Below the pieces are notes generated by a model. The model did no database searches and was not told the DNA's origin. It saw only the letters and a program-made list of their open reading frames with translations. A stretch of 63,168 bases of DNA, counting the filler, from Porpidia crustulata (Eukaryota), in assembly GCA_964255105.1 (NCBI GenBank). It is 5 parts of 5 records of this genome, joined end to end, with 100 filler letters (N's around TTAATTAATTAA, not from the genome) between each part and the next. Parts side by side here need not be neighbours in the genome. Positions count along the whole stretch, not along the records: positions 12,665 to 25,222 come from CAXUWE010000515.1; 4 more parts are not named here. One strand, written 5' to 3'. The stretch's first letter is position 1, and every line of letters starts with the position of its first letter. Below are positions 1-44,300 of the stretch, in pieces. The position numbers and the translations under genes were made by a program.

Positions 1-1431
1 CTGCTCCACCACCTCCTCCGCCTCGCTGACGCTCATCTTCCCCAGCACCTCGTTCACCCGGTCGAGGGTCCCGCTCTCCAGCGCCCTCTGCAGACCCGGT
101 GGAAAGCGCTCAAAGATGTCGCGGGCTGCGATCTCGATTTCGTCGGTACTGGAGGGTTGGGGGATGTTGATGGTGATGGTGGTGTTGGGGTCGACGGCGT
201 GGAGTTGGATTTGCTCGACGTCCTGGGTTGCGGTGGGGTTGGCGGCGCGCTCGGCGCGGATTTCGGTGCTGCGGGTCCGGATGCGGTTGTAAGTTGTGTT
301 GACGTCGTCCAGGAAGACTTTTTGGGCTTGATGGCCTGGGGTAGTGATGCTGTGGGGCGTTATATCAGTATCAAGGGTGGCAGGGATTTCGGAAAAGTAC
401 AAATTAGAAGCTTACCGTTTGAAAAACATGCCTACGCCATCTCGGCCGAGGGATCGACAGTATTGAAGGAGCAAGGCTTGATGAACACATTGTTTAGCAT
501 AGGTGGAATTATTGTGGTCAAGTTGGGCGTTGAAAGCTTCGATTAGCAGGCCATCGGTTTCTTGCTCCGCGACAACGTCTGGGTGCTCGGATATAAATTG
601 AAGGCATGCCTTGTAGTCACCAATTTTGATCTGTGCAAATTTCTTACCAATCTTCGTAGGTTCAATATGCTCTTTATCGGGGTCGGCGTTGTTGCTAATT
701 GGTTCATCCACATCAGCTTCGGCACCAGATGATTGAGCACTGTCCATACGACGAAGTTGGTCTTTTTTTATAGAACCGGGATTGAGGACCTCGACTACCT
801 CTTCTCTTGGCTTAGACTTGGTTTTGGGCTTTTCCGTCTCCTTGGGTTTTGACTTATTGACCGAGGAGCTATCGAAGCCTGTGTATATGCTTTCGCTCGT
901 AATCTTCTTCCCAGCCTCTTTTTCAAGCTCTCCAAACTTTTGCATTAATTCTTTTTGCAAATGTATGACCTTCGTTCTATGGCCCTCAATTCCTATGAGA
1001 TAGCTCTTATACCAATCTGGCTTCGAACCTACCTCTTTCTTTACTTGATCCACCAGGCTCGCCATCATCTGAGAATACTGCGGCTGCTCGGATTGAGAGT
1101 GTACACCTGGCGGAGGTTTTGGTGGCTGATCCTGTGCAGGGTCTCCAGCACTTTGCATCAGCGCTTGCATCATAAAATCATCAGGATTCCTTGCATCTGC
1201 CTCATGACTGCGCAAGGCCGCCAGAAGGGTGTCGATGCGTTGTAATAAGCCGTCGTTGATAATGCGCTCATACTTGAGTGTCTCAATACGGTGGCTTCTC
1301 TCGGCTCTCTGTTGATGTATCTGATTTTGTTTTGCTCGTATGAAAGAGCGTTTATCGACGTTTGGGTGCGGCTCAAAATCCGAGTCGTCGGAGAGCTCCA
1401 AAGCATCCCATTTACTGTAATTCACCGGCAT
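1..1431 (-). CDS. CDC37: Hsp90 co-chaperone Cdc37 (3' end truncated by contig edge)
   Basis: N-terminus MPVNYSKWDALELSDDSDFEPHPNVDKRSFIRAKQ is the fungal Cdc37 signature. GT-AG intron 350..415, then RITTPGHQAQKVFLDDVN continues to position 1. Confidence 0.95.
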
Positions 1432-2047
1432 GGTAGGGAGTCCAGACAGAACTCTTCACGGGCTTTGAAATCCGGTGATTGCGCAAACCAACAGACCTTT
1501 GGAATGAGGCACCCTAGCTATGCTCGAAGAAGATCTGGATGTGAACGTCAATGTGCAGGGATAGGCGGGACCACCGTCTCTAAGGCTGCCTAAGGTCTTA
1601 CCGCGTTAGGATTTGAATAACTAGCAAGACATACAAGACGATGTACAATGGAAAAATCTCCTACGATGGCAGTGTTTTTGAAGTAATCGGTGCGCTTTTG
1701 ACAAGCTCTCTTTTGCGTTTATCTTGAATACCAGATAGTCAATCATTCTTAATAGCACCATGCACATTGGTAGCTTGGAAGATTAGGCACACAGCCGAAT
1801 CAAAGGCAGAAAGGGTATCAGAATCATTATAATAACATTCCAATCATCCTTGAATGCTGATACGCTGTCTGCTACCCGGATGCCTCAAGGAGCTTGAGCG
1901 TAATGGTGACATACAGTATATGGAGACCATCCTACGACCAGGTATCGAATGCAAGCCATAATGCTCCAACGCCCTGCCCCTATTCACAATACTTCTCTGC
2001 CTTCTCCACTGCCCTGGTTACCCGTTTGGGTGAAATTTTCGGTGCGA

Positions 2048-2969
2048 TTAATATCCTCCCGCTCCAGGCGCCTTTTCGTCCTTCCGTAACTCCCCCAGTA
2101 ACTCCCGGAATCGCTCCTTACCCAAGCCCGTGGCCCCACCCTTCGCTCCTTTGCCACTCAGATCCACAAGCTTTGCAATGCGCTCCCAACTTGTGCCTCC
2201 AGCAGAAGTGTCTTCGCGGCTGGCCAAGAATTCTTCGGCGTCTTTTCGAGTACGAGTGAGGGACTTCTCTTTTTTAGCGTTGTAATTTTCATAGAAATCG
2301 TCGATGGATTTTTGGGCAGTGGCGATGGTTTCTTGCTTTTTCGAGCCAGAAATCTTAGCACGCTCAGCTAATTGGACGTCGCGACTTTCACGCCATTGGC
2401 TGGGACGAGACCAAAATTAGTGTGGAAAATCCTACAAGAAGAGGATAATTCACCGTATAGGCCCGGGGTCTTCTTCGGGCGATGTGTAGCTGCTGTATGA
2501 CTGTTGAGAAGGCCGAAAGGGTAGCGCGGAGTTAGTGATGGTGCCACCTGGTCCGACTGCCTACCCATTGTCAGATGGTGAGTTCGGTAACATCCCAAAC
2601 AGGTATCCATACTTCATTACGCGTGTTATCTACAGCAGGGAAAGAGCTCTCGAATTGTCCAATGTCGTCTCCACCAGCTTGTGTGCCGTCATAGCTTTCC
2701 CCTAATAAATCATCCTCTGCGTCCTCTGCAGTAGCTGTAACGGCATGGTCGTTCGATGATGCAAACTGGTCTGCGTCGTCACCGAGCAAGGCACGCTCAC
2801 GGCTTAGGAAGTCTTCTCCCCCAACGTCGTCATGACCGGAGGTACTATTGCCCTTGATTCCTATCTGGCCTAGAGGAGGAATATCTATGATTAGCAAAGG
2901 CTTGTGAAAGTGAGCAGCAATTGGCTCACCTTCTGAGAAATCCTCCAAGGAAGGAAATTTATCAGCCAT
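2048..2969 (-). CDS. CLC1: Clathrin light chain (spliced)
   Basis: MADKFPSLEDF...DFLSRERALLGDDA...FESSFPAVD...QWRESRD...SIDDFYENYN...ELRKDEKAPGAGGY* assembled across GT-AG introns. Confidence 0.92.
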
Positions 2970-3395
2970 GGAGGCAGGTGCGCTGAGATGAAACCTTTTG
3001 AGGAGGGAGCTTCAGCTTCCTAGCGATGGTGATTTGTCTCGTTTGTCTACAAAAGCGGCAGTGGATTAGTACGAATCGGGCGTTCCAGTGACTCGTTGCC
3101 CGTTTGAGGAATTACTGACGCGACACTATCTCCTTTAGATAGGACCTCTAGGGAGCTCTAAATACCCAAAATAATTCCGCACCAATCGTCCTTAACAGTC
3201 GTCCCATACTTTGAAACAATTATATCATTTAGGCAGAGAACAGTGTGTGAATCTTACAGCTACGATCTTCTGTGCATATTCAGAAGTAGTATTCCTTTAA
3301 TCCTGCGTCTGATTCACTAACCTGTGAACGTCCCATCTCCCCCCCTTAGTTATCGCACTGCAAACCGAGTCAGTAGATAGCTATAGCAAGCTACA

Positions 3396-4754
3396 ATGGC
3401 GTATACGGATGATGGTGTAAAGGCAAAGCTCTCGGCTCTGAACGAGACCCAGGAAAGCATTGTGACCGTGGCTCAATGGGTGATTTTCCACAGGTATATT
3501 CAAGTTCCGTGCTCTCATCGTATCTAGTACACTGATTCCTGGATTCGTAGGAGACACGCAGACCGCACTGCCACCATCTGGCTTCAACGTCTCAAGGACT
3601 CCGGCTCTAATAAACGTCTCAATCTCATCTACCTCGCTAACGAAGTAGCTCAACAATCACGTGTCAGAAAAAAGGATGACTTCCTTATTGCTTTCTCCCC
3701 AATCATCGCGGAGGCGTCTGCCATAGCCTACAAAGGCGCTACAAACGAGGTCCAGCAGAAAATCCGCCGCGTCATTGAGGTATGGCGGCAGCGACAGATT
3801 TTTGAAGGCGCCATTCAGGAAGCTATTGAAGCCCGCATCGACGAGCTCGATAAGTCGCGCTCATCAAGCAAGAAACCTCTACTTGGTGGCTCTCTCTTCG
3901 CCAACGCATCCGGACCATCCGCACCGCTGGAAATCCAGCCTCTCGTTCCCCTGCAAGTCGCTGTCTCAAAGGCCGCAGCATCCATAAAGGGCCTTGCAGC
4001 AACCGCAAATTCCGAATATGAGAAATTAAACGACCCGAGCAAAACCATCCCCACACCACCCGTACACGCCGCTCGCCTCAGCGCGCTCCTGAAATCTCTC
4101 GCGAGCGCTGAAGGCGCCGTATCCGAAAGCATCAAAGCCCGCCGCGCGCTCGTCGAAGGGCTCGAGAAAATTCTAGAAACGAACCGCACAGCTCTCACCA
4201 CCGAAGAGTCGCAGCACTCCGAGCTCCTCACCCGCAAAGCGGCCGCCGAAGCCAAGAAGCGCGAGGTCGAAGACGGCATCATGCGCGGCCTGTCCGCCGA
4301 ACCCTCACCCTCGACACATCAGGCAGGAACTAACGCCTTCGAAACCCACACCAATGGCAACGGCCGAAGCACGCCTCTCGAGAGCCACAAGACCGAGCCA
4401 GAACGCCCCGATATAGAAGAACTTACACCTCCGCCCGTGGAATCCCTCACACCCCCCCAATCCTCGGCGCAGACCCCTTTCCAAACCTCGCCCCCTGCAT
4501 CGCTCGTCTCCCAAGTGCCTCAATACGCCTCACAGCCACCGCTAGCGGTACCACAAGCCGGCTCAGACCTACTCTCCTCGCTGTCCATGCCGCCGGTACG
4601 CCACTATGCCGGCAGTCCGGGGAGTGCAGGAGGAGTGACGAAAAAGAGGAAACTAGAGGACGAGACGGATGGGTTCGGGGTTGGGGAGGACGCTATGGCG
4701 GATCTGGACGACGATGTGGCTGAGCTTTTGAGGGCGGAGAGTGGAGGTTATTGA
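3396..4754 (+). CDS. RTT103: CID-domain RNA polymerase II CTD-binding protein (Rtt103/RPRD-like)
   Basis: MAYTDDGVKAKLSALNETQESIVTVAQWVIFHR, one intron, then KRLNLIYLANEVAQQS (CID motif); C-terminal part is ORF 4281..4754. Confidence 0.85.
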
Positions 4755-5577: not shown

Positions 5578-6797
5578 CTAAGGTCTACCCATGAATGCAG
5601 GTTCACGAGATGTATCGTTTGTTCTCTTCGGCTTCACCAACAGGAGAATGAACATGCCAATGACGAGGAGAAGAAGGAATAGGAGAATCTTTCGCTTCGT
5701 GGATTTCCGCTGATATTCAGTTGCCTGATCCCATTTCGTTAGCTTTATTTACTCGCCCGACTAGGATGCATACGTACGACGACAAGTTCCTTTTCCGCTT
5801 CCTTGACATTGACGACCATATTTTCTATATTATAGTCGATTCGATCCAGCATAGTCCCTTGATCTATGACCATCATCTGAAGGTCCTTGAAAATATCCGC
5901 CAGCTCGATAATTCCCTTGGCAATCTCATTGATCTCTCGCTCTCTTTGTGCAATTGCAGCTTCATTTCCGGTAAGACGCTTCTGTGCTGTTTGTTGAATC
6001 GTGGCTTGCTGAAGAGTTGATTGAGAAAAAGACTTGTCAACCTCGGATTCCATCATGGACGGATCAGAGTAAGGGTTCTGCGAAGGGGTAGCTGATCCTG
6101 GGAATGGAGAGGACATGCCGCCCAGCTGGCGAATTTCTAGAGATTGAGTCAGTATAGTGTGAACTGCATGTAGTTTACAACATACTCTTCAAGTAGTTGC
6201 TCTGTTTTTTTCGAAACCCAGCGCTGGCCTCTTGCACTGCAGCAGCCAATGCGATCTGGATATTCCGAGCCATAGTTTCGTCTGCCTTGGTAACCCCACC
6301 TTGCCGCTTTGCTTCTCTAACCATCATCTCTACCTTCTGGATGGCCCTCTGACAGTCATGAAAGCGTCGTGTGATTTCTAGTGTGAGCTGCTCAATCGTT
6401 ACCTCCTCCTTCTTTCTCACATCCTCGTCTTCAAAGTTTGGTAATACATGTTTCTGGTGCATCTTATCTAGGTTTGCTGACTTTTTGGCTATATTATCCA
6501 GGAGCTCAGTGACCTCATCTTGAACATCCATCCATCTTGGTGGAAGTAGATCCATTTCAATAATTGCATCTCCGTCATCTTCGAAGGCTCCGGCTGACAT
6601 GAGCCCGCGGCGCTCCTCAGATTCCGATCCTTGACTAGAGAAGCCATTGGCAGACGCGCCAACAGACTTTCGCTTCTTGGCTGGGTGATGGGCATACGAC
6701 TGTCGGTAGGATATGTAGCTATTAGAAAGCTCAGATCAGCTCATTACCGAAGCCCACAGAAACGTGACACCCACAGGTTTGTCCTATCTCTCCACAT
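5578..6797 (-). CDS. TLG2: t-SNARE syntaxin Tlg2 (syntaxin-16 like)
   Basis: MWRDRTNL|YISYRQSYAHHP N-peptide, SNARE motif (QREREINEIAKGIIEL...DQGTMLDRIDYN), C-terminal TM helix KRKILLFLLLLVIGMFILLLVK; 3 introns. Confidence 0.93.
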
Positions 6798-9387: not shown

Positions 9388-9739
9388 CTTTGGCGGAGTA
9401 TAGTAGGCTTCGAAATTCAAGAAGAGTGATTTTGGGAAAGAGAAACGGACTTTCAGAAGCCCACGATTATTGAATTTTTGATAAAGTAAAAGGAGGTATC
9501 TCCGTAAGACAGTTGAAATGGTTCGAGAAGCTCGGACCATGAATATTTACCTATATGCACGTCATGCAGCTAGTTCATTTGCGATTTAGACGAGTATTAC
9601 AAAAGACCCTTGTCAATAAATGTACTACTACAAAGTACTTTCTCAGGCTTCCACTTCTTCGACTCAAGCTACCACAGCATAGCAAAGTACACCATGACCA
9701 GGCACTCTCAAAGAGTGTTTTGCTACTTTAGTCGGTAAC

Positions 9740-12197
9740 ATGAGTGGATGGAGAGCAAATAACAAAGTCATGCGCAGTTCTGAGCTGCTTCTACGGCGAA
9801 TATGCAAAGCCCCTGTGCTCAGTACTCAGCAATCGTCTCCGCAAAGCAGACTGATGTGTCGGGCTATGCAATGCAGGTTTTCTACCCATATCCCAACACC
9901 TAAGCAGAGCCTTCCAACTTCTCTAACGGCCTCAATATCAACTTCGTACACTCCATCCCGTTTCCTAGCTTCCCACCCTCGACCAGCAATTACGCCTTTA
10001 GCTCGACTACTTCTTACCCCTCATAAGCGGCGAAAATCGGATTTACCTGTGACTAGACTCAGGGATGATAATGACGATGGCCTCGAACCCGAGGAAGAAG
10101 AGCGAGGCTTTGAGATGTCCCACAAAGCTTCGCAAGCCGCGCAAGTAAATCTTAGCGCTCGCCTAGCCAAGGATGGGAAGTCTCAGGGTCAGACAGCTGG
10201 CTTTGGCGAAGTCTGGAGATTGATCAAGATCGCTAGACCGGAAGCCAAGGTTTTAGGATATGCATTTGTCTTTCTATTGGTGTCTTCTGCCATCAGCATG
10301 GCCGTTCCGTTCTCCATTGGAAAGATACTGGACATTGCTACAAAATCGGAGGATGGGACTGATCAACTTTTCGGGTTAGACCTCACAACGTTCTACATTG
10401 CGTTAGGCGGTGTTCTGGCGATAGGGGCAGGTGCAAATTACGGTCGTATTATCATACTTCGAATCGTTGGAGAGCGTATTGTTGCCCGTCTAAGGTCTCA
10501 ATTATTCCGACGAACCGTTATACAGGATGCCGAATTCTTTGATGCCAACAGAGTAGGAGACCTCATTTCCCGATTAAGTTCGGATACAATTATTGTTGGA
10601 AAAAGCATTACCCAGAATCTGTCAGACGGACTTAGGTCTTTGGTGAGCGGAGGTGCTGGATTTGGGCTGATGGCATTTGTCAGTGTCAAACTTACAGGCA
10701 TATTGACCCTCATGTTTCCACCCGTAGCCATAGGTGCGTTCTTTTACGGTCGAGCTATTAGGAATCTCAGCCGAAAAATCCAAAGGAATCTAGGGACCTT
10801 GACTAAGATTGCCGAAGAGCGACTTGGCAACATGAGAACGAGTCAAGCGTTTGCTGGTGAGATCCTCGAGGTTTCTAGGTATAATCATCAAGTAAGGAAG
10901 ATATTCGGGCTTGGGAAGAGAGAAGCATTCATTAGTGCTACTTTCTTTAGCACTACCGGCATGATGGGCAATTTAACGATTCTTGCACTTTTATATGTCG
11001 GAGGTGGAATGGTGAAAGATGGAACCATTAGCATTGGCGAGTTGACATCATTCCTGATGTACACTGCCTATGCAGGATCCAGTCTTTTTGGGTTATCCAG
11101 TTTCTACTCGGAACTGATGAAAGGTGTCGGAGCTGCGAGCAGACTGTTTGAACTCCAGGACAGAGAGCCAACTATATCACCGACTGTCGGCTTGCCTGTT
11201 GTATCAGCACGTGGTCCGATCAAATTTGAGGGTGTTTCTTTCAGCTACCCGACGCGACCTGCTGTCGACATCTTTAGCAACCTCGACTTTGAGATTCCTC
11301 AAGGGACGAATGTAGCCGTTGTTGGACCGTCGGGTGGAGGAAAGTCAACCATTGCATCGTTGATGCTTCGCTTCTACTCGCCTACGCAAGGGCGCATCAA
11401 GGTCAATGGCGTAGATATTTCCACGATGAACGTCAAAGCCTTGCGGCGGAAGATTGGTATTGTGGCCCAAGAGCCAGTCTTGTTCTCTGGCACAATAGCC
11501 GAAAACATTTCTTACGGCAAACCCCGTGCCACGCGATCGGAAATCATCGCCGCCGCCCGGAAAGCGAACTGTAGCTTCATCAGTGATTTCCCTGATGGTC
11601 TAGATACCTCTGTCGGAGCGAGGGGAGCCATGTTGTCCGGAGGTCAGAAACAGCGCATAGCGATCGCCAGAGCACTAGTCAAGAACCCAGACATCTTGAT
11701 CCTCGACGAAGGTAAACGCCCACCACGGCCATTCTGACTATCATCTAGCTAACAACCACATCATAGCCACATCCGCCCTCGACGCCGAATCCGAAACCCT
11801 CGTCAACTCCGCCCTCGCCGCCCTCCTCCGCGGCAACAACACGACCATCTCCATCGCCCACCGCCTCTCCACCATCAAGCGATCCGACACCATCATCGTC
11901 CTCTCCTCCGACGGCAAAGTCGCCGAACAAGGCTCCTACAAGGACCTCAGCAACAACCCCAACGGCGCCTTTACCAGACTCATGGAATGGCAGATGAGTG
12001 GCGGTGAGACCGAGGGGGTTTCCGGGGGCGGGGTGTCCGCTGAGCGGAACGGGACGTTAGAGGAGGGTGAGCGGTTCTTGCCGGATGTGGATGATGGCGA
12101 TGAGGGTGATGAAGAAGAGGATGGCGTAAAGGTACGGAGCGCCGAAGATACCAAGTCCGAAGCTGCACATCAAACACCCACAAGACACCCACAGTAG
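9740..12197 (+). CDS. MDL1: Mitochondrial half-size ABCB transporter (Mdl1/Mdl2-like); start may be 9770
   Basis: Basic presequence, TMD, Walker A GPSGGGKST, LSGGQ signature, ILILDE; intron 11712..11766 then ATSALDAESE. Confidence 0.9.
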
Positions 12198-12564: not shown

Positions 12565-12664
12565 NNNNNNNNNNNNNNNNNNNNNNNNNNNNNNNNNNNN
12601 NNNNNNNNTTAATTAATTAANNNNNNNNNNNNNNNNNNNNNNNNNNNNNNNNNNNNNNNNNNNN
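12565..12664. other. Artificial contig-joining spacer
   Basis: 44 N + TTAATTAATTAA (stops in all six frames) + 44 N. Confidence 0.99.
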
Positions 12665-13186: not shown

Positions 13187-13532
13187 GGCTTACCATCTAC
13201 TACTCTTGAATCGAGCGTGATATTTCGAGACTTAGCCGCATGGAAGGCGTTCAGGTCCTGAACTTAGAGCTTTTCAGAGCATAGAGAATGAGTTTGCATT
13301 GATCTAGATTTCATTTGACCTTCGCAGCCCTGAAACACTTCCACAGCCAAATCTTAAGCAGAATTTCATGATCCGAGCTCCTAGCAACTCTGAAGATTTC
13401 GCTTTGATCCTAGCGCTCCGTCATAGTCTACCTAGCAAACGCCATTCGTCAGTGCTGGATCTCGGAAGAATTCTAAAGCCCTAGCATTCTTGGAATGGGG
13501 TTGAGAGGAAGTTATTCCTACACTCGGGAGAT

Positions 13533-14914
13533 TCACTTGGGCGGTGGGTTTAGCACGAATTCGACACCCTTCTCAATGTTTCCCTTCAAACCGGTCTTGC
13601 AGGCTTCCAGGAGTTTCTTCTCATTATCGTCTATTTGGCTCAACATATTGTGGGCTTTCTCTACGCCCGATGGCTGTGAATTTGTCAGCGTTCAGCCACC
13701 AGGATGTGATTGTCACGAGAGGCCATACACCGAGCTCAACAGGAACCGAGAAATAATCAAGGCCAATTTCTTTCCCAATCGCTTCACCACCAGCGACACC
13801 AGGAAGGAACACGTATGATGGCTCGACGATACCTTTTTCCCCCTTGGTAGCCTTAATGAGCTTCTCTGCGAACCTAATCCTACGTCAACGGTGTGCGTTC
13901 GACCTGAGCGTAAACATATTATGATATACCCACCGGAAGCCAGCATATGCCATTGACAACGTTGCAGAGCCTGCGCCACCCTTGGCCTCTACAACCTCGT
14001 CACCGCCGAATTGAACACCTACAATAACTCAGCATATTTGCACCCACTAGCGCAGCTGAGCAACAGACGCTTGATCAATGGGGCGAGTTTCTCAGCCGGA
14101 ATCTTGACCGCAGGCTTTGCCAAGCTGAAAAGAGGTACAATCGTCTCGCCGGAATGACCACCAATTACGGGAATGACAGTCTTTGAGGGGTCCTTCTCGC
14201 CAGTGAGGTCCTGGACAAAGGTCTCCGCGCGTACCACATCCAAGGTCGTAACACCAAAGAGACGTTTGGGGTCGAACACTCCAGCTTTCTTCATAATCTC
14301 TGCAGCAATCGGAACTGTAGAGTTGACAGGGTTGGAGATGATCAAGAGGAAAGCTTTTGGGCAGTATTCGACGCAGCCTTTGACGAGGTCGCGGACTATC
14401 CCAGCATTGATCTTGAAGAGATCATCACGAGTCATGCCAGGCTTGCCTGATGAGCTTTAGTACATGAGGCCCATGCATAGTCTCAAGCGTACATACGAGG
14501 AATACCAGCAGGGATGACCACGATGTCGGCGCCCGTCAACGTCTTCTTTAGTCCATCATCTGTTGGAAGATAACCACTGATTTTCTGTGGCCTCTTAGTT
14601 CTACCATAGCGAGGCTCGAAAGGTTTTATGAGGACATACTGCCACAGAGGAGATATGGGATAGGTCGGCTGTTACCCCCAGTGTATTGACAACATCGTAG
14701 AGGGAAAGCTCGTCAACTAGTGGGCAGGCTTTCATGAGAAGTGACAAGGGCTATCAACACGTATCAGCGACGAGACACAAATCGACGGCTCATGCCAGTG
14801 CTACTCACCTGCCCAATACCCCCAGAGGCTCCTAAGACACCTGTATGCAGATTAGAACAATGCGTTCAAACAGCATCCGAGCCGACCGAAGTCCCACGCA
14901 CATGCTTTGACCAT
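13533..14914 (-). CDS. MDH: NAD-dependent malate dehydrogenase without mitochondrial presequence (cytosolic/peroxisomal type); alternative stop at 13421
   Basis: [20 protein letters not shown]..., [40 protein letters not shown], ends NPPPK*. Confidence 0.96.
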
Positions 14915-16317: not shown

Positions 16318-16739
16318 ATGGGCTACCGTCTTCTATATTCTCTAACCTTCTCCTCTTTGATCCTTGTCACAGGTCAGTCAGTCGTTGCTATGGTCTCTGA
16401 ATGGGACTGACATGATTAGCGCTCTATCTCACTCGTGGTCGCTGGATGCATCTGATACCAATACCTGACTACGTTTACCAGAGACTGCCTTCGTCATTCT
16501 CCAGTGATATCGAATCCGGCTTTACTTCTGACGCGTTCAATCTCGCAGCGAATATCGCGACCGGGGATACGCGCGCAGGGTTAGACCAGACTGCAAAACG
16601 AGAAGTGCAAAAGATCATGAGAAGTAAGAAAGTTGGGTTCGATGAGGCAAGGAGGATGTACACAGAACGACATTTTGCGAACAACAATATCGGACCGGAT
16701 GGGAGACCAAGAGATCCGAAGTTTGTCTCGTTTTCATAG
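16318..16739 (+). CDS. Conserved fungal protein, DUF2015/YCL012C-like, N-terminal hydrophobic helix
   Basis: MGYRLLYSLTFSSLILVT|ALYLTRGRW...SFSSDIESGFTS...GDTRAGLD...IGPDGRPRDPKFVSFS*; one intron. Confidence 0.8.
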
Positions 16740-17158: not shown

Positions 17159-18331
17159 TCATCTTGCTCTTGTGTAGCCTTGCTGCTGGAAGCCAGGCGG
17201 CATACCAGGAGGTGGACCTTGCCCTGGAGGTGGGCCAAAGCCTGGAGGACCGAATCCTGGAAGAGGCGGTGCGCTTTGCTGAGGAAATCCTTGTTGTGCT
17301 GGAGCGTTAAACCCCGGAGGTAGGAAGCCTTGCGGTCCTCCATATCCAGCTTGAGAAGGTGGAGGCCGTGCTGGTAAGCCTGAAGGAGGAGCAGGCAGTG
17401 GTTGGGAAGGTGGTGTAGGCCGCTGTTGCTGGGATTGTGGCGCATTTTGGACAGTGCCACTCGGAACGCCTCCTCTGCTATTTATATACCCTGCTGAGCT
17501 GATTTGAGATCCACCGCCTGGTCGATTCATGTCAACGTCGAGCATGGCTGCCGGAGCACTGGGTGCCCCTCCTGAGAAGAGTCCTGCTGGCAATGGTTGG
17601 GTTACTGGTTGCACATTATGTTTCCTTGCTTGAGCCGCCAGCATACGTTCGGCTTGATCGCCGTGACGCTCTCCTTTACCGTCTTTTTTGTACGCGTATT
17701 GCACTGATATTTCCTTGTTCATCAGATATTGTCCATTCATATTGGCTATGGCTTCGTCTGTGGCCTCAAAGTTCGAGAAAGAAACGAATCCGTAGCCTTT
17801 AGATAGATTAGCATCATCGCGAGCAACCTATTAAGCTACAGAATCAGCCAGAGACTCAGAGCGCAAAAGGGATAAGAGTAAATATGACCTTCGGAGCAGA
17901 TATTAGACTACCAAAACGGCCGAAGGTATCATAGAGTGTTTGCTCGGATACCATAGGATCTAGATTCCCAATGAATAGCTCCGCGCCAACTTCGACAAGC
18001 TTCTGTTTATCTGCAGAAGCTTTATTCACCCTTATGGGTTTCCCATATAGCCTGACCTGGTTCATGATCCTCGCTGCGTACTCTGCATCCTCTTCACTTA
18101 TGAATTCCACAAAGCCATAACCCTGATGAGTCTGGGTGACTCGATCCTTGGGCAAATGTACGTTGATAATTCGACCAGCCTGTAGCATTAGTTCCCATAC
18201 GAGGCTGTCAGATACCCGCTCATCGAGGTTTCCGATATAGACGGTAGCCTCTTTGTCCTGCTCCCTGTGAGGTGTTAGAATATGTGGATGACTTCGGGAC
18301 CCCATACATACCAATGTCGAGCACCAGACAT
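17159..18331 (-). CDS. HSH49: Splicing factor SF3B4/SAP49 (two RRMs plus Pro/Gly-rich tail)
   Basis: [24 protein letters not shown]...[19 protein letters not shown]...[27 protein letters not shown]. Confidence 0.95.
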
Positions 18332-19215
18332 GATTAGCACAATCGCCAATGAGGTAAGGAATTCTAAGATGCTCCGAGCAAGTGTTGCGCAAAAACTATC
18401 TTCCGGAGCCCGACGTACTTTATAAAATACGCTATCATGGAACGGCAAATCTGAGCCTCAAATTTATATATTACTACCTACATACTTCACATCCCTAACT
18501 ACACTCCTCGCAACTATCGGCCACGCGTGCACAAGATATATAGTTGGGCCTCCGCTATAATGTTCCAGCTTTCGGAGGAGTCAAAAGTAAAGTGCCAGCT
18601 AGTCCTTCAAAAGCTAGATCAAAGGGATTGACATGTCAGTAGGAGAGAATCACTAGGTTAATCGACGTCTCTCGGATAGCAATACATTAGTAAGAGCTAG
18701 AAATCTGCCCAGATCGATGACATAAGTTTAACAATCAATAGCGGCTATCTTCCATTGATCATATACCTCGGTAATCCCCCTAAGGCGCCTGCTAGTTACA
18801 GCATTTTCTAACCATCGATATAGGTTATACAAGAAGTGAGCCGAAACCAGCATTTATACGGTACAATACATGATTGTTCTACAATGTTGGGCATTGAGCT
18901 TCACTGACACCATGATAGGCTCTTTTCGCCTCTTGCATAGAGGTCCCGGACCCGAACATCTTGCTGGCAGAGAAGCCGAGTGACTGTTCCATCGGCGGCA
19001 TAGGATCAGTGTATCGGAGCGTTCGATAACCATAGATACAATGCCTCAAACCGACGGTAGCGATGCGTTATTGGACTGGGTTCAGACCTTGAGTACTTAG
19101 AGACAAAATCGCGCTGGCTGGATCAGTCCTGAGTGAATATTACCTCTAGTAAACCTGCTGTATTTATAGAACGCCCTTGTTCGTCTCCCAAATGCGGTCA
19201 ATTGTTGCGTGTGCC

Positions 19216-20256
19216 ATGAATCATAATGATACACGCCCTCAACCACTCACAGAGTCGGTAGCAGGTTTGATTGCCGGATTCGCTTCCACGATTGCTGCCC
19301 ATCCCCTTGACGTAGTCAAAACTCGTTTGCAAGGTATGCATGTATCTAAGCATCTACACTATACTAAGTCCACACCTACTGAAAGCAACATCTCTAATAT
19401 TGCATAGTTGATCGATCTGTGGTGCCGCATTTTGGCAGCTCATTCCGTATCATTCAAGGGATTGTCCGTGATGAAGGAAGTCTGACCGCATTCTACCGTG
19501 GACTCTCACCCAACATTATAGGAAACTCCATTAGTTGGGCATTATACTTCTTATGGTACGACAGGCTCAAGAATGGGCTTCAAGTCTATCACGGATCAAA
19601 AGAAAGCCTTTCATACTATGACTTCTTCGTCGCTTCGGGCGCCGCAGGTGCGATAATCGTTGATTAAATAATGTGCCCTCTAATTTCTTTCTTCTTATGC
19701 ACCAATAGGAGCCCTCACTGCTGTTTGCACCAATCCAATATGGGTAATCAAGACACGCATGCTCTCAACTTCGCTGAATCATCCTGGAGCATATAGCTCG
19801 ATCCTAGACGGTTCACGGCACATCTACCAGGGAGAGGGACTTCGAGGATTCTATCGTGGTTTAACTCCGTCTCTTCTTGGGGTTTCCCACGGTGCATTGC
19901 AGTTCATGATCTACGAAAAGTTGAAGATATACCAAAGCAAAGGGCAAAGCGGAGCCCCGAGGCATCTCGGCTCATTCGACTTTCTCTTACTGAGTGGTAT
20001 ATCCAAGATTTTCGCAGGGTGTGTGGCCTATCCTTATCAGGTTGTGCGAGCTCGACTTCAAATGTACGATGCAGAGACGACATACAACAGTGCAAGAGAT
20101 GTTGTGGTTCAAGTGTTGAAAAAGGAAGGATTCAAAGGGTTCTACAAAGGACTGGGGCCAAATCTGCTGAGAGTTTTGCCGAGTACTTGGGTCACTTTCT
20201 TAGTCTACGAGAAGACCAAAATTTACCTGCCCACGATTCTCGGAGATACCGACTGA
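19216..20256 (+). CDS. FLX1: Mitochondrial carrier, FAD/folate transporter-like
   Basis: Three carrier repeats HPLDVVKTRLQ, NPIWVIKTRM, YPYQVVRARLQ; ISWALYFLWY motif; 2 introns. Confidence 0.85.
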
Positions 20257-21448: not shown

Positions 21449-23794
21449 ATGTTCAATACACATCGTGGGATGGTTTCCGCACCAAATAGTCGACTAACCG
21501 AGCTACTGGACCAGGTGCGCGCTGAATTCGATAATCAGCAGAATCGGACTGGTGATTATGAGCAGCAGAGTGAGTTCACTGGGTTTGGTTTACCCTCAGC
21601 TGCCGGCATGCATTTCTCTGCACCTTTGTTTCCATGTAAATCCTGCATCGGTCGATACAAGCCTTGATCTCCTCGTTATTTGGGCATCTTCAAATCACGT
21701 GCGAAAGAAACGGCGAGTTTGAAGACGGCAACGATGAAATCGCTAATGAGTCTCGATTCTCTAGTGGCAACTCAGGTTCAAGAAATGGAAGTAGTGAGAC
21801 AGAAAGTCTATAGTCTAGAGCAAACCCAGATCGCTATCAAGCAGAGGTGTGTCCTTTCTTCATAAGAATATTGTGTTGGCATAAATCGCTGAATCTTCAT
21901 ACTCCAGGTATGAGGAAGACATTACTCGCTTACGACATGAGTTAGAGGTTCGTGGAGGGCCTTCATCTCATGTAAGCCTCAGTGGCCTACCTCCGCATGG
22001 AGGTATTGCACAGCCGCATCCTCCCGCCATCGGGCATGGCCCTAGCAATCTGTTCGGCGGTATCATGGCGAATCCGCCAGGTCAAGGTAATCCAGGTCTC
22101 GTCCCACCGTCCCAAGACCAGCAACAACAAGGTCCTCCGCCACACCAGATGCCTCAGCCACCACCAGTGCTTCACCAACCGCAATTTTCAGGCTACCAAC
22201 AGCCACCGAGCGTTAACGGCGGTAAGTGTAGCCTCGGGATCGCACATATGCCTAGATATCTGTTTAGAGATTAACCTGCTCATTACAGGCTACAATCCCC
22301 AACCACCACAGTCGACTGCGTCTCCTGGTCCTGGGAAAGGCCGTAACAACCGCGGACCGCCCGGGCCGACAACTCCACATCAGAGCCAGCCGATACCTTA
22401 CCCCGACTCTAGACCTTCGCCGCAAATGGGAAGGCAAGCGTCACCTCCTCAACAACAGATTCCTAACGTGGGAAATATGCTTGCAGACCTGGATCCCGAT
22501 TCGCTCCCCTCCCATCAAAAACGTGAAGGCGTTGACTGGTTTGCTGTCTTCAACCCCCGTGTGCGCCGTGTTCTTGATGTCGACCTGGTTCATAATCTGA
22601 GCCACGAAAGTGTTGTCTGTTGCGTCCGGTTTAGCCACGACGGAAGATATGTTGCAACTGGATGTAATCGCTCAGCACAAATCTTCGAAGTATCGACCGG
22701 CAATCAAGTCACGAAATTGCAGGACGAATCCGTGGACAAAGACGGGGATTTGTACATTCGGAGCGTTTGCTTCAGCCCCGACGGGAAGTACCTTGCAACA
22801 GGCGCCGAGGATAAACAAATCAGGGTCAGTCATTAGATCAGCTGAAGTCGTTCTCCGTTTCTCTTCATGAGTAATTTACTGACTTGGACTAAGGTTTGGG
22901 ATATTCAATCTCGAACCATAAGGACTACGTTTTCTGGACACGAACAAGACATCTACTCGCTTGATTTTGCTCGAGACGGCAAACACATCGCCTCCGGTAG
23001 TGGTGATCGTACAGTTCGTGTCTGGGATATTGAGAGTGGACGAGAAGTATTGAATCTTAGTATCGAAGACGGTGTAACCACAGTAGCTATTTCCCCTGGG
23101 GGTGATTACGTTGCAGCAGGATCTCTGGACAAGAGTGTCCGTGTATGGAATGCTCGTACCGGAATACTCATTGAAAGGCTCGATGGCCTCGAAGGTCACA
23201 AAGACAGTGTTTATTCAGTAGCATTCGCCCCTGACGGTCGATCACTCGTCAGCGGAAGTCTCGACAAAACCATCAAGATGTGGCAACTGGCCGACAGTCG
23301 AGGAATGAGTGCAGGTCAGGCAAGGGGAGGGAAATGTATCAAGACTTTTGAGGGCCACAAAGTGAGCTGGATTGAATCTAGTGGTTGATGTCTATGGTGC
23401 TAATAACATATATCAGGATTTTGTGCTCAGTGTTGCCCTCACGCCCGATAGCCAATGGGTCCTCAGTGGCTCAAAGGATCGGGGCGTACAGTTTTGGGAT
23501 CCACGTACAGGCGACACTCAGCTGATGCTTCAAGGCCACAAAAATTCAGGTACGTTCTCAGTCCCTGAAGCACGGCAGCTAGAAGATGAACAACAATTTC
23601 ATCAAATGCTGATATCTACGTTTACAACTAGTTATCTCTGTGGCCCCAAGCCCCCAGGGCGAACTATTTGCTACCGGTAGCGGGGACATGCGGGCCCGAA
23701 TCTGGAGGTAAGTCCACGACTTTATCTGAAGGCTCCGCATGGCTGAAATGCTAAATTGTTTGCCTATAGATACGGCCCGTGGCAGAATCAGTAG
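21449..23794 (+). CDS. TUP1: General transcriptional co-repressor Tup1/Rco-1 (Tup_N plus WD40)
   Basis: [14 protein letters not shown] (Tup_N), [55 protein letters not shown]; multiple GT-AG introns. Confidence 0.97.
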
Positions 23795-25222: not shown

Positions 25223-25322
25223 NNNNNNNNNNNNNNNNNNNNNNNNNNNNNNNNNNNNNNNNNNNNTTAATTAATTAANNNNNNNNNNNNNNNNNNNNNN
25301 NNNNNNNNNNNNNNNNNNNNNN
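25223..25322. other. Artificial contig-joining spacer
   Basis: N44-TTAATTAATTAA-N44. Confidence 0.99.
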
Positions 25323-27977: not shown

Positions 27978-30900
27978 TCATCGCCGATGGCTGCGTTCTT
28001 CACTTCTTCCGGACCAATCCTTGCCAGACTTCTTCCATGCCAATTCGGCTTCCTTGAGTATAGCTAGTATCTGTTCCTTCACTCCAGTCTGAACCTCGGA
28101 ATAGAATTGTGCCTTTCTTGGTGTCCTGCTCAACAACGATTGACCCCAGAGCCATTTAGCGCAAGGATTGGCACCGTGCTCTAGCAACAGATTCACCATC
28201 CTTATATTGCCTTCGAAGACTGCATAACAAAGAGCCGTCACACCATTATTGGTCTTGGCTTCTATTTCGACACCGGATTCCAAGAGTTGAGCGGCGCATG
28301 CTTCATTCTGGGATTGTACAGCCAAAATCAGAGGGGTATAAGCTTAGTACCTGCTTCTTGCTTCTCTGTTCGCCCCGGCATTGAGCAAGCGTTCCACCAA
28401 CACAGCCGCGATCGGATGTTTACAATACTGCGCAACCACGTGCAGTGGGGTCGCTTCCCATACCCCCTTAGTTTTTACATCAACCAATGCCCCTTCCCTG
28501 ATTAATAAGGTGATCAATTCTGAGCTTCTTTCATTTTGCGCTGCACAATGCAGGATCGATCCTCCCATATTATCGTGGGCGTGAATATCTGCACCGTCAT
28601 GTATCAATTTTACAGCGAGTTCCTCTTCGCCATGTACGCATGCGATCGTAAGTGGGGTTTCCCCATCCCGGTTCTTCACGTCGAATGGTGGCCGATATTG
28701 AAAAAATAAATCAATACAAGTTTCAGTAAGTTTTACGCCATTGTATCGTGATAAATGGTGCAACGCCGTGAAGCCGGCTTTGTCTTGGACCCCCTGACTT
28801 GCTCCGTGCTCTATTAGAAGCTTGATCATATGCTCATGCCTGTGTATCGTTGCAGTAATCAGAGGTGTCTTGCCGCCGAGAGAGGATTTGCAGTTCACAT
28901 CGTAGCTCTTCAATAGCCTCAGCGTTCTCTCAACATCTCCAGAACTAACAGCAGTACTCATATTGAGGCCATATTCCATGCTTTTTCTTGCGTCACCCTC
29001 TCCATGCGAAGCAGTCTGCGGTTGTAAGCGTTCGCCCACAACAGGATCTGAAGCAGCTGAAGACGGCGGATTTGCAGCACACTGCCCAGGAGCGACCGTT
29101 GTTTCAATAGGCATCGGCGATTTCGTTAGATTTAAATCAGTTGTGATTTGCTGTTCGTTGGACCTGTCCAATCCCATTGAGGACGATTCTACTCGTTGGG
29201 GAGTAAGGTCTGAATTCTGTCTAGGATGATTTCCAGTTGAGACACGCAATCCAGGAGATGTAGGTGTATTCTACCCTTGACTATCAATGTCGCTCTGTAC
29301 AATAATATTGGGGATGGGACACATACCTCCGTGCTATGCGATGTTGTTGATTCATTCTCTTTCCCTTCTTCACGAATGCCTAATGTACTGAATGTCATAT
29401 CCGATATTGAAGGGCTAGGTTTCGAGTTCATATCATTATTTACGCAATCATCTGTGCCTCTTTGCCAATGAGAAATAGTTTGCTCAACATCTCGACGATC
29501 ATGCTGACTAGTATCTAAGGTAGATGGCTGATTTTCATGCTGATTGGTTGCATCTTCGGATTGGGACATTGGCTGCCCTGCTACTAGACCAGCAACGCGA
29601 GTCTCCAAGGAAATTGAGCTTTCGTGATGTGAATCGTCTAATATGCCTGGACGAAGGGGGGGCTCATCTTCAGATGCGTCATGTGAGGTCCCATTCTCGC
29701 CCTGTTGCTTCCCTCCATTATAGAGATCGGCCGCACTAAGCAAGGCTTGTTTGATTGCCCATCTGACACTCGGATATATACCACTCTCACCACGTTTTAG
29801 TTTCGCCATTTGTGAGTGGTCTGCGTTGGAGGCGACACGCTCTTCACGAGGATACCATAGTCGTGCAGAATCATGCGAGACCATCATCTCAGCTTGACCC
29901 TCCCGTTTCCAGGATCCTTCGGGCATCTATATCTATTATTCAGCAAGTATAGTTTGTCTCATCTTTTCGGTACTTACCTCAATTACAGTCTTGGTAGGAC
30001 TCAACTCACAGCACGTAAGAATGTCTATGTCTTGAGCGGCATACCGGAATTTGTCATTCAATTCTGTTAAAGTTCGGGATTCAGACTTGAGCTCTCGGAT
30101 CATGTCCTTAGTTGATTTAGATTCAACTAATGTCTCTAGAGCTGTTGTGTGCAGCCCTTTATGGGGTGCACCGAGGAAAATGATCGAACGTACTGGCAAT
30201 CGAGAGCTGTGGATAGAGCCGTAAATACCGACTGAGCCATTGATATCATAAAGGGCCTTGAGGGAGGTGAATTAGTAAGACCGTAATTAGAATTTGTTCA
30301 AATTACGTCTGTTATATATTACCTTCTTGATGATGAGGCACCCAAGGCTATGGCCGATGAAATCAATAGGTCGATCTTAACACTGTGGTACGCTTGTTGG
30401 CTGTGTAGTCATCGGATATGTAGGATTCGAAAGACAAACCTTGGCCGATTCACGCATAGTCAGAAGTCTATGGATGAGATTGGTACTATAATCCGAAAGA
30501 ATACTTCTTGACACATTCCCTTGTAATTGCGAAGGGTAGCCATAAATTATTATCCGGGCATTATTGATGTCTCTAGGGAGATAGTCTCGCAGCCACATGT
30601 TTTGAGCTGAGTGAACCCATGAGCCAAACGCATGAGCAGCGAGGCCTGTGACTGCGATTATACTAAAAATCTTCTGTCAGCGTATTTGCTTATTGACCTA
30701 TAAGACTTACTCGGCTGCAATGGGCTCTTGGGGATGAACGAGAGGAGTGAACCCGTGGAAGTCGCTATCTATGCTGATATTATCATCTAGAACACGAGGG
30801 CATAACACCATTCGATTGGAAGATCGGAATGAAATTGTGGCAGTCAATTCCTGGACGTCCAACTCATAGTTGTCAACAGCGGGTACAATGGATTTGACTT

Positions 30901-37877: not shown

Positions 37878-37977
37878 NNNNNNNNNNNNNNNNNNNNNNN
37901 NNNNNNNNNNNNNNNNNNNNNTTAATTAATTAANNNNNNNNNNNNNNNNNNNNNNNNNNNNNNNNNNNNNNNNNNNN
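37878..37977. other. Artificial contig-joining spacer
   Basis: N44-TTAATTAATTAA-N44. Confidence 0.99.
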
Positions 37978-39880: not shown

Positions 39881-41303
39881 TGTCGGATGGGATCAATTAA
39901 ATTCAATGTTCGGTGACTGTGATACAGCAAAGAATTGTCACAAGCCGAATGACACCGGTTTACAGTGGCTAGAGGCGGTTGTTGATTATCATCGCCTCAA
40001 CAGTTGATTCACGCCAGACTCCATGTAAGAATTCCTCGACCCTGTCAGGCCAATGGCAATCGCAGCGCGGATATGCGGTGAATCAAATACAGTCTGATGC
40101 AGGTCAGGGATCTGATTGGACATTAGTGTTGATTTAAGATGCATGGAGACGGCGGAGCATGGCGGCCTGGGGTCAAGTGGTCACGGACGCTGTCATCCGA
40201 GTGAAGCAAAGCCTCTTGAGGGTCTATAAGCCACAGGTGGGTGACGGATGTTGGGTAATAGATTGGAATTTGGGTGAGCGAACGTCGTACTCGCAATGCG
40301 AATAACCCACATGTTCATATGACTATAATCGCCGTTCCGATTTACGATCTGGATGCCTAGGGCAAGGACCAAGTGACCATGTGGGAGAAGTCCATCACCA
40401 GTAGGTTAAGAATTGTGACTGGACCCCCACTCCCCACTTCCTCTTCCCTCTCGTGCCTCTGTGCCTCTCCCGTCGCTTGCCCTACGGATACGGCCCTTAG
40501 TCCGTTATTGCTGTCAATCCCACGAGGCCTATGCAAATGCGCACAAGCCTTTGAAGTGAGAAATTAGATACTGATGACATTACGATTCCTGTGTGTACGC
40601 CTGACAAGATCGAAATATCAGCCCTGGACCGAAACTCTGGACTCGAAGCAGACCTCAGTACAGAGCTGCAATGCCAATAGTGTTCATGTCGTCTTGCGTG
40701 GTCGTGTTTCAATCAAAGTCGTCAAGATCTTCGGGTATCTCGATTGATAGACATTGGTAGGGTGGTAGGCTAGGTTCTGCTCCAGACCTCAAGCGGGAGA
40801 CTTCTACACCACCTCAGGGATGCAATTATGAGTCAGAGATTCCTACATTGCAGATTGTCAATATACTGCATTCATATTCGCATTGCGCGCAGAGAGATGC
40901 AGAATGGTTGAATTGATAAGGCGATGTTAGGCAAGGCGCATAATGAACATGGGTACAGAGTCCCCCCTATGCACTTTCGACAGGCAAGCCCAAGCCATGC
41001 TACGTGAAATTTCTACCTCGACGATTCATTGATTTTGACCCCGCCTACCAAATGTAGTTATCGTGGGCGGCATGCTAATTCATCAGTAGCGGCGGGAACT
41101 ATGATAGCAGAAGCAAGTGTCATGGAGATTGACGGTCATTTCAACCGTCATTACTCACACCTTCTTAATTAATAAATCCTCCTCCTCTCTGCAGCAATGG
41201 CTAGGTAATCTTTTATGGGTGAGAGGAAAGCTCGAGTCATTCTGACATTCTCTCACATCATCAGCTACATGCTACAAATCTCGCGCCCTTCAGTTAGTCT
41301 GTA

Positions 41304-44300
41304 ATGTCCCCCAAGTGTGAAGGCCCGATATGGAGGTTGGACGATTTCACTCCATGCTTCCAGCAAAGGTCCGGTCAATGTCTCGCTCATTTGATTTCTC
41401 TGCTAATGCTATCGCACAGCTACCTCCAGATCCTACTCCCTTTGATCGCCTCCGGTACATCCCTTCTCTACCTTCTAATTCAACTGATGTGGCGAGGTAT
41501 ACAATCACGGCAGGATAATGGCTACTCAAAATTGAAGAACTCTCAAAGACCATATAGTGACAATCAGTCCTTCATTGACCACCAGGAAAGATTACAGCGT
41601 GTTCAGAGCGTTGACGAGACTGGCGAGAATCACGGACTGGCCTTGCAACGAACAATTAGTGGCGCGAATGAGTCTATGTTAGAGGTCAGTCGTCCTGTGG
41701 GGGAAATTGCTCTTGTGATCGTCGAGGTCATTGCACTTGCGGGCCAAGTGTGCCTGAGCCTAGCAGCTTTGTTGACCAATGCCTCGGGGCGACATGGGAG
41801 CCTCGCAGCTACAGCGGAGCTTGCTGCTTGGAGTTATATCTTTGCGCTTGCACTGCTAAGATTGCTGCTTCCGCTTTTCAAATTAAGCCGACCTCCAAGG
41901 CTTTGGAACCACACGGCCGCTCTCTATGCGGTACAATGGCTGTTGACTGTTCTTCTGTTTCGATCTGCCATCATACATCCGCGCTCAAAGCAAGCTCAAA
42001 TTCTAATGATTGTTCAATTTTCCTTAATTAATATACTTATCATCATTGCTACTACGTCGAGGAAAGGAAACAAAATTGTGGTTTTAGAATATGAGGATGA
42101 TATTGAGCCCTCCAAAGAGCCGCTAGCAAGCCTGTTTTCGATTGCCACCTTTGGCTGGGTAGACGCAATTGTCTGGCAAGGCTATAAGAAAGCCTATCAG
42201 ATATCCGATGTATGGAATTTGGCTCCCAAAGATAAGGCGGCCGCTGTCATTGCCGAGTACAGACAGCTTAAGAAAACCTCTAGATTAGCATGGCACCTAT
42301 TAAAATACTTTGAAGGCTATTTCTTAAAGCAAGCGGCATGGGCATTCGTCTCTGGCACCTTCACCTTTGTTCCAACCATACTCCTGAAAGCATTTTTGGA
42401 GTACGTTGAGAATGCTGAAGACACGCCTGTGAACGCCGCCTGGTTTTATATCTGTCTACTCGCCGCCTCTGGATGTGTCAATGCTGTTGCATCCGGTCAA
42501 GCTCTCTGGATAGGACGTAGAATCTGTATTCGCACACGTGCCGTCATCATTGGAGAGATATATGCCAAGTCGCTAAGGCGAAAAGCAGCTGCCAGAATAG
42601 ACACAGTCTTAGGTGCGGAAACGAAAAAAGTGAATATCAAAGGAGATCAAGATCAAGGACTAAAGAATAAGGTTCTATCTTTCGGGCGGAGAAAGAAGGA
42701 AGGCCGGAAGACCAAGGCTGATCCTGCACCCGCCAAAGACGTCACGGACTCTCAGGTCAATGTAGGGACTATCATCAATCTGATGGCTGTGGATTCGTTC
42801 AAGGTCAGCGAAGTCAGTGCGTACTTGCATTTTCTATGGGCAGCTACTCCAGTGCAACTCGTCTTGTGTGTGGTCCTTCTGTATCGAATTCTTGGGTGGA
42901 GTTCGTTTGCCAGTATCGGGTTGATGATTTTGGTCACTCCCCTCAACCTATACATCGCCAGACAATTCAGCAAATTCCAAAAGATTATCATGGCTGCCAC
43001 TGACGCCCGGATTCATACCACTAACGAGGTTTTGCAAAATATCAGGATCATCAAATATTTTGCTTGGGAGCTGCGCTTCGCACAAATCGTCAACGAAAAG
43101 CGAAGAGTAGAACTTCGGGCCCTCCGAAACAGGTATATTCTCTGGACCTTTGCAGCCACGGTCTGGACTGGAGTGCCTCTGATGATCACTTTCTTTTCAT
43201 TCTTAGTTTATACCGTTATCGAGAAAAGACCTCTGATACCATCTGTGGCTTTCACCGCGCTTTCACTTTTCAGCCTCTTGCGGATACCCTTAGATCAATT
43301 AGCGGATATGGTTGCCCACGTTCAGGAGTCCAAGGTTTCAGTTGATCGAGTCGAAGAATTCTTGAACGAGGATGAGACCGAAAAGTATGATCAGCTTTGC
43401 CAGGGTGTCGTGGATGAAAACGGAGAACCGCTGATTGGATTCGAGAACGCAACTTTTTCGTGGGGATCCCAAAACAGTCAGCATGGGGACGGATCGAGAG
43501 CTTTTCGCATGATTGACATGACGGTCCGGTTCCAGATCGGTCATCTAAATATTGTCGCTGGCGTTACAGGATCGGGAAAGACGTCACTTCTAATGGCGCT
43601 GCTGGGAGAGATGACACTTATCGATGGCTCAGTTCATTTGCCTGGTGGTTATAGCAGAGAAGAGCTTAAGCCAAAACCAGAAACAGGTTTGACCGAGAGT
43701 GTCGCATACTGCGCGCAACAGGCGTGGCTGATTAACGATACGATCAAGCAAAATATTTTATTCGCAGCACCTTCGGACCACTCGCGATATAATTCCGTTA
43801 TAGCCGCCTGTGCTCTAGAGAGAGACCTTCAGATACTAGATGGGGGGGATTCCACTCTGGTAGGTGAGAAAGGTGTGACGCTCTCTGGAGGACAGAAACA
43901 ACGGATCTCACTAGCCAGAGCACTTTATTCCAATTCACGACATGTCATCCTCGACGACTGTCTAAGTGCTGTCGACTCACATACCGCGAAACATATATTC
44001 GAGCACTGTATCATGGGTCCTTTGATGGTTGGCCGGACTTGCATTCTTGTTACTCACAATATCTCACTTTGTGTACCGCTCTCACATCATGTTGTCGTCT
44101 TAGGAAATGGAAAGATCATCGCTCAGGGTCCTCCTGGGGACGTGATGTCTTCAGGGGCGCTGGGCGAGGATATCCAGAAATCTAGACCAGGATCTAAAGG
44201 TGGAACTCAAGTAAATTCTCGAGTACAATCGACACTTCATCTTGAAGATGAAGCCAATAAGCGTGGCAACGGAAATACTCAAACATCCAAAGGAAACACA

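Follow-up and report, generated by a model that had tools for sequence, protein, structure and literature searches.

A predicted terminal-intron switch with tandem acceptors in an ascomycete malate dehydrogenase gene and its conservation in related fungi

Beta-oxidation and the glyoxylate cycle have peroxisomal malate dehydrogenase (MDH) as their NADH-shuttle partner. A readthrough extension of animal MDH1/LDHB was reportedly described by Hofhuis and colleagues in 2016. For the MDH gene of Aspergillus fumigatus, the available part of Hurtig et al. (2020, RNA 26:1464, PMC7491326) describes three mRNAs detected by RNA-seq. The form that retains the final intron is the commonest and the annotated one, a proximal AAG acceptor leads to the same protein as retention, and a distal UAG acceptor, 4 nt further on, adds one residue to give a "putative PTS1." The same source reports that Lipomyces starkeyi MDH gives a cytosolic form by retention and a PTS1 form through a single acceptor, and it dates the MDH splice event to more than 590 My. 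In Yarrowia lipolytica, the last intron of MDH2 can end at either of two 3' splice sites with a spacing of 4 nt, and the resulting proteins end in P-A-N or A-K-I (Kabran et al. 2012, DNA Res 19:231, PMC3372373). According to the available sections of that paper, the distal form makes up 17-53% of the junction reads, tagged MDH2 isoforms localize to the cytosol or the peroxisome, with the distal form being peroxisomal, and Y. lipolytica is the only one of the yeasts compared there to show the event.

Cytosolic enzymes also reach peroxisomes by other routes. Animal MDH1 and LDHB acquire a PTS1 by readthrough at TGA CT, and the published pattern for fungal PTS1 sequences is [SATPCVNG]KL (Stiebler et al. 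2014, PMC4207609). Readthrough is likewise the origin of further peroxisomal enzymes with a cytosolic counterpart, for example phosphoglycerate kinase (PGK) in fungi (PMC4207609 and the accessible portion of the review PMC3798809). That portion also credits Freitag et al. (2012) with cryptic PTS1 motifs produced by alternative splicing in Ustilago maydis GAPDH and Aspergillus nidulans PGK. In Saccharomyces cerevisiae, Mdh2 is imported into peroxisomes by piggy-backing, as stated in the available part of PMC9549241.

Our full-text literature search found the MDH splice event of filamentous fungi in PMC7491326 only, and papers beyond the searched literature may exist. The event is unmentioned in the available parts of five reviews (PMC3798809, PMC9549241, PMC3764329, PMC12316961, and PMC3597508). 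A sequence-only reading of the locus studied here had inferred an extension of the Yarrowia mechanism to Pezizomycotina and had cited Y. lipolytica MDH2 as making its isoforms through closely spaced 3' splice sites. This agrees with the 4-nt spacing given in PMC3372373. As for the extension, the three-isoform pattern is already published for A. fumigatus, as the accessible text of PMC7491326 makes clear, and the mechanism itself is already described in Aspergillus and Yarrowia.

The MDH gene and its predicted terminal intron

The window, i.e., the whole stretch of 63,168 bases that was analyzed, carries the MDH gene on its minus strand. The gene model was assembled by eye and by script on the basis of reading-frame continuity.

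13533..14914, minus strand: coding sequence of a malate dehydrogenase (cytosolic/peroxisomal type, NAD), from the in-frame model, Pfam, and homology
14914-14902, 14840-14809, 14750-14640, 14584-14497, 14446-14069, 14018-13934, 13873-13729, and 13673-13533, minus strand: MDH exons, with the TGA included in the last

The model comprises 8 exons, starts at the ATG at 14914, and encodes a product of 330 aa with the C-terminus NPPPK. The seven upstream introns are 50-61 nt long, all are GT..AG, and G occupies donor position +5 in all seven. Exon 5 gave Pfam matches to Ldh_1_N and Ldh_1_C. When exon 5 alone was used as the protein search query, the best match was the malate dehydrogenase of Usnea florida (91% identity), and the next matches were from Stereocaulon, Schaereria, and Puttea (88-90%); lichen-forming fungi were thus the nearest. 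The enzyme appears to have no mitochondrial presequence: the nearest proteins begin with MVKA or MKA directly before the GASGGIGQ nucleotide-binding loop, and the N-terminus of the model is alike.

The elements of a terminal intron lie at the very end of this reading frame.

13538-13536, minus strand: last sense codon AAG (Lys), within CCC AAG TGA, read from the sequence
13535-13533, minus strand: stop codon TGA of the unspliced frame, read from the sequence
13531..13536, minus strand: predicted 5' splice site GTGAAT, beginning at the third base (G) of the Lys codon and containing the stop TGA
13448..13454, minus strand: predicted branch site CACTGAC, with the branch A at 13449
13434-13432, minus strand: proximal acceptor TAG, read from the sequence
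13428..13430, minus strand: distal acceptor TAG, also the stop codon of the proximally spliced mRNA, read from the sequence
13432..13536, minus strand: predicted terminal intron, proximal form, 105 nt; its junction to 13431 reads AAG TAG
13428..13536, minus strand: predicted terminal intron, distal form, 109 nt; its junction to 13427 reads AAA CTA TGA
13421..13427, minus strand: coding part of the micro-exon, i.e., A (completing Lys), CTA (Leu), and TGA (stop), read from the sequence

The distance from the branch A (13449) is 17 nt to the proximal AG and 21 nt to the distal AG, and the two TAG acceptors are spaced 4 nt apart. The final intron stands at the very end of the frame, and its retention still leaves a complete protein. 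By translation, proximal splicing gives K-stop and a protein identical to the unspliced product (...NPPPK), and distal splicing gives K-L-stop, with the C-terminus ...NPPPKL and the terminal tripeptide PKL. The sequence-only reading had proposed this donor, branch site, acceptor pair, and set of translations, all of which proved correct when the minus strand was read. Unlike the other seven MDH donors, which have G at +5, the terminal donor GTGAAT has A, and the terminal intron, at 105 or 109 nt, is about twice as long as the other MDH introns. The weak donor and the long intron suggest an intron that would be mostly retained, as in A. fumigatus. A plus-strand open reading frame at 13477-13815, which overlaps the splice site, had no Pfam match.

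We consider it highly probable that the gene is the single cytosolic/peroxisomal-type MDH gene of a lichen-forming (Lecanoromycetes-like) ascomycete and that it carries an ancient ascomycete terminal-intron switch. The Lys codon together with the stop (AA/GTGAAT) would make a weak 5' splice site, with three mRNAs expected. If the intron is retained, translation would end at the TGA and yield cytosolic MDH with the NPPPK end. Use of the first TAG downstream of the CTGAC branch would exchange nothing but the wobble base and the stop, with no change to the protein. Splicing to the second TAG, 4 nt on, would shift the frame by one codon and add Leu, so that the protein would end in PKL, which Pex5 should recognize as a type-1 peroxisomal targeting signal. 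One gene could in this way supply the cytosolic and the peroxisomal halves of the malate/oxaloacetate NADH shuttle. From the DNA sequence, we infer splicing in this organism, the isoform ratio, and peroxisomal import of the PKL form. The single matching sequencing run, X1, is a DNA contig with no joints that is identical to the window and may be its source. The C-terminal tripeptide was scored by pattern alone; PKL fits [SATPCVNG]KL (PMC4207609), in agreement with its earlier designation as a PTS1-type tripeptide. It would be a noncanonical PTS1 within the accepted pattern, and its Pex5-dependent import is a prediction.

The other genes of the window were identified by Pfam matches of long open reading frame pieces.

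4-1455, minus strand: CDC37
2051-3011, minus strand: clathrin light chain gene (PF01086)
3528-4751, plus strand: CID-domain protein
5748-6188, minus strand: SNARE
9698-11734, plus strand: ABC transporter
16416-16736, plus strand: DUF2015
17162-18395, minus strand: RRM protein
19684-20253, plus strand: mitochondrial carrier
21976-23677, plus strand: WD40 protein
27981-29270, minus strand: ankyrin-repeat protein
41298-46463, plus strand: ABC transporter
46867-49734, plus strand: Sad1/UNC
51133-52548, minus strand: EMP70
62545-63165, plus strand: chromate transporter

Runs of N at 12565-12664, 25223-25322, 37878-37977, and 50527-50626 form four pairs of 44 bases, about 12.65 kb apart, and seem to reflect masking, not biology. 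The first pair follows the MDH micro-exon at a distance of about 770 bases on its downstream side.

Conservation of the terminal intron in related loci

For the survey of relatives, the last exon of the window was aligned with 13 C-terminal pieces of stored proteins, and the alignment was scanned against metagenome contigs. The scan matched 261 stretches, of which 215 were confirmed and the best 80 were kept (L001-L080). By a rough assignment from the nearest named proteins over 46 aa, these best 80 loci resemble those of Lecanoromycetes, Dothideomycetes, and Eurotiomycetes. Their layouts past the stop codon were as follows.

51 of the best 80 loci (including L001-L008 and L022-L032): tandem motif 47-173 nt past the stop
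15 of the best 80 loci (L009-L021, L033, and L056): single acceptor (R-Leu-stop after it), pyrimidine tract, and CTGAT/CTAAT branch site 20-22 nt upstream
3 of the best 80 loci (L035, L048, and L057): intronless contig with the proximal junction
1 of the best 80 loci (L070): intronless contig with the distal junction
3 of the best 80 loci (L060, L063, and L065): too short to tell
7 of the best 80 loci (L036, L047, L049, L059, L068, L071, and L072): no K-L-stop product

Dereplication of the best 80 loci at 97% over the last 120 coding bases left 45 groups, with 28 tandem, 7 single, 3 proximal, 1 distal, and 6 without the product. The nearest relatives, L001-L008, have the donor hexamer GTGAAT as well. 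In an alignment of the window with L001, L004, L022, and L025, the CTGAC was invariant, and conservation extended over the end of the coding sequence as well as the block that begins with CTGAC and finishes with the Leu-stop. The intron interior of the same five sequences was not alignable, with many substitutions and indels. Conserved ends around a diverged interior are the pattern that a spliced intron followed by a translated micro-exon would leave.

The 13-nt tandem motif, AG-R-TAG-R-(Leu codon)-(stop), was rare elsewhere. On both strands of the window it had 1 match, which is the MDH site, and control sequence from related loci, 188,098 bases in all, also had 1. Of 200,000 mononucleotide shuffles of the 401-nt stretch downstream, 130 contained it. 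The conservation data rule out a chance motif as an explanation. The single-acceptor pattern is short, with about 0.04 chance matches per 400 nt, and the support for this class therefore comes from the branch site and pyrimidine tract and from the fact that it recurs, with differing Leu codons, in five sequence groups.

Spliced and retained forms were both present among the environmental contigs. All 7 introns of genomic locus L080 are absent from contig L070, and the last gap of L070 on L080 is 83 nt (GTATGT...AGATAG) and ends at the distal AG; L070 reads AAG TTA TAG, for a PPPKL end, and it has an upstream frameshift, i.e., its assembly is imperfect. Gaps ending at the proximal AG were found for L057 on L037 (67 nt), L048 on L054 (53 nt), and L035 on L067 (84 nt). 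In L034 and L074, which still contain the terminal intron, an open reading frame of about 330 aa runs without interruption. The retained, proximal, and distal isoforms all exist in environmental mRNA-derived contigs of related fungi. Among the 120 homologues listed, two proteins end in PPPKL, namely P0046, from an environmental contig of 1343 nt, and P0095, from Malbranchea cinnamomea. The sequence-only reading had claimed a terminal intron with tandem acceptors and had proposed looking in relatives for a conserved donor, branch site, and acceptor pair. The 51 tandem loci among the best 80, the two kinds of junction in intronless contigs of relatives, and the PPPKL ends of P0046 and P0095 all support the claim.

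Several loci depart from the tandem layout. In the lichen-like single-acceptor loci, the acceptor is CAG or TAG, lies about 155-170 nt past the stop, and is without a tandem TAG; the choice there would be between retention and a PTS1-type form (AKL, QKL, or TKL). The QKL ends predicted in several relatives fall outside the published PTS1 pattern. The product has apparently been lost in L049 and in L059/L071/L072, in which the stop after the Leu codon is absent and the distal product would be extended to a C-terminus that is no PTS1, as well as in the cDNA-like L047, where TAG has become TAA and the distal acceptor is gone. The terminal intron of L068 (1638-1690) is still spliced, since contig L060 is without it. 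In that lineage, and also in L036, the acceptor is followed by G TGA, so that the spliced mRNA would end with K-stop and no PTS1 form is visible. Locus L080 (1633-1717) has the donor AA/GTATGT with no stop after Lys, and retention would give no clean cytosolic end; the catalogued tail of protein P0078 (Delitschia confertaspora) looks as if it were read into an intron of the L080 type. With no K-L-stop product in 7 of the best 80 loci, or 6 of the 45 groups, the device is apparently dispensable in some lineages.

Signs of selection on the micro-exon and competing explanations

Codons were counted in 36 unspliced representatives, the window included. The last sense codon was AAG in 36/36 and never AAA, which is explained by the GT donor, as this requires AAG. 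After the distal AG, all six Leu codons were present (TTA 7, CTT 6, CTC 8, CTG 6, CTA 4, and TTG 5). The search pattern also permitted Ile, Met, and Phe codons at this position, and none was found among the 36 representatives. The final stops were TGA in 23, TAA in 12, and TAG in 1. Because the Leu-stop varies synonymously, the micro-exon would appear to be translated.

These counts bear on the possibility that the terminal intron is real and spliced but that use of the distal acceptor is splicing noise. In that case, the PKL form would be of no consequence, being either too rare or too weakly targeted, and the source of peroxisomal MDH would be another gene or piggy-back import. The donor is indeed weak, the retained form is the commonest in A. 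fumigatus (PMC7491326, in the part available), S. cerevisiae is known to import Mdh2 by piggy-backing (PMC9549241, likewise in part), and a separate peroxisomal MDH gene could be present in this genome. However, the Leu-stop directly follows the K-L-making AG in 35/45 groups with all six Leu codons in use, and untranslated sequence would not keep it. Furthermore, the 15 single-acceptor loci among the best 80 are without the proximal site and have retained the acceptor that gives K-L-stop, and the distal form of Yarrowia is both peroxisomal and far from rare in the junction reads given in the available sections of PMC3372373. We therefore regard noise at the distal acceptor as unlikely.

It is less likely still that the signals are an inherited relic, unspliced in this species, with only the NPPPK protein being made. 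The weak donor, an intron that is long for this gene, and the visible loss of the product in some lineages (L049; L059/L071/L072; L047) are what a relic would be expected to show. On the other hand, every element is intact in the window and shared with L001-L008 despite the diverged interior, and GTGAAT acts as the inferred donor in a second gene. The third intron of the clathrin light chain gene starts with GTGAAT at 2453-2448 on the minus strand and ends near 2400, as deduced from frame continuity, and because the frame needs that intron, GTGAAT would be usable as a donor in this genome. The use of the same donor in this PF01086 gene had been noted from the sequence, and it holds by reading frame. 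As a word, GTGAAT is not enriched in the window (35 matches versus 38 expected).

We give almost no credence to readthrough of the TGA, rather than splicing, as the source of the peroxisomal form: it makes peroxisomal MDH1 in animals and other peroxisomal enzymes such as PGK in fungi (PMC4207609; PMC3798809, available part), but here the stop context is TGA ATC and not TGA CT (PMC4207609), the tail would be ISRV, and the explanation was rejected because 0/44 tails from the window and its relatives fit the PTS1 pattern. In L022, L046, L054, L073, L044, L062, and L074, where the length of the intron preserves the frame, readthrough plus retention would yield GRL or DRL ends. These tails are a by-product of in-frame reading of the same Leu-stop and lie outside the PTS1 pattern.

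The terminal-intron switch, our preferred reading, may have a wider scope. We tentatively propose, as an idea that is plausible without being one we would yet favor, that it is a near-universal device of Pezizomycotina that lineages have rebuilt, with the Lys-stop serving as a 5' splice site and the TAG as both stop and acceptor. Lineage-specific donor strength would set the share of peroxisomal MDH, and in lichen fungi the device might be the only source of the peroxisomal malate shuttle, and a regulated one. The layout varies by lineage, with the tandem form in the window, L001-L008, and L022-L028, only the K-L-making acceptor in L009-L021, and a few loci without the product. Donors are GTGAGT or GTAAGT in the short-intron, Dothideomycetes-like loci versus GTGAAT, GTGATT, or GTAATA in the lichen-like loci.

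Relation to described systems

What is added here is the breadth of conservation, the codon-level signature of selection, and the turnover of tandem, single, and lost acceptor layouts. A published observation in a single species is extended to many lineages, and the turnover of the acceptor layout could guide genome reannotation. In filamentous and lichen-forming ascomycetes, annotated MDH is almost always the K-ending form only, and because of this, peroxisomal MDH is absent from predicted peroxisome inventories. The sequence-only reading had expected annotation based on open reading frames to miss the KL form, and this holds among the 120 homologues listed, in which the C-terminus is K in 93/120 and KL in 2/120.

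The locus resembles animal MDH1/LDHB in having a PTS1 hidden behind the stop of a cytosolic MDH and in its dual localization, which is a prediction here. In contrast, the animal extension comes from ribosomal readthrough at TGA CT, whereas in the window splicing would be responsible and readthrough yields no PTS1. In U. maydis GAPDH and A. nidulans PGK, too, a cytosolic enzyme has a minor splice form with an added C-terminal PTS1, which annotation from open reading frames misses, as would be the case here. Those are different enzymes with different exon layouts, not homologous to MDH.

Yarrowia MDH2 resembles the locus as well. In both cases, a gap of 4 nt separates the 3' splice sites of the last intron, use of the distal site creates the PTS1, and one gene serves cytosol and peroxisome (predicted here). 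In the available account of Yarrowia MDH2, however, the intron is always removed and the ends are P-A-N and A-K-I, whereas in the window the donor overlaps the stop, retention gives a complete protein, and the ends would be PPPK and PPPKL. As far as the consulted parts of these sources go, localization by experiment is given for Yarrowia MDH2 only. The layout of Lipomyces starkeyi MDH, as presented in the accessible text, is that of the 15 single-acceptor loci; the window keeps both acceptors.

The A. fumigatus gene shares several features with the locus: it is of the orthologous type, its final intron can be retained, its 3' sites are 4 nt apart, and the distal site adds one residue to make a putative PTS1, on the evidence of the available part of the paper. 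The two differ in the proximal site, which is TAG in the window and AAG in A. fumigatus, and in the kind of evidence, since the A. fumigatus forms are backed by RNA-seq and the window is known from its DNA sequence. In the part of Hurtig et al. (2020) that was available, A. fumigatus is the sole representative outside Saccharomycotina, whereas here the layout has been traced through the best 80 environmental loci.
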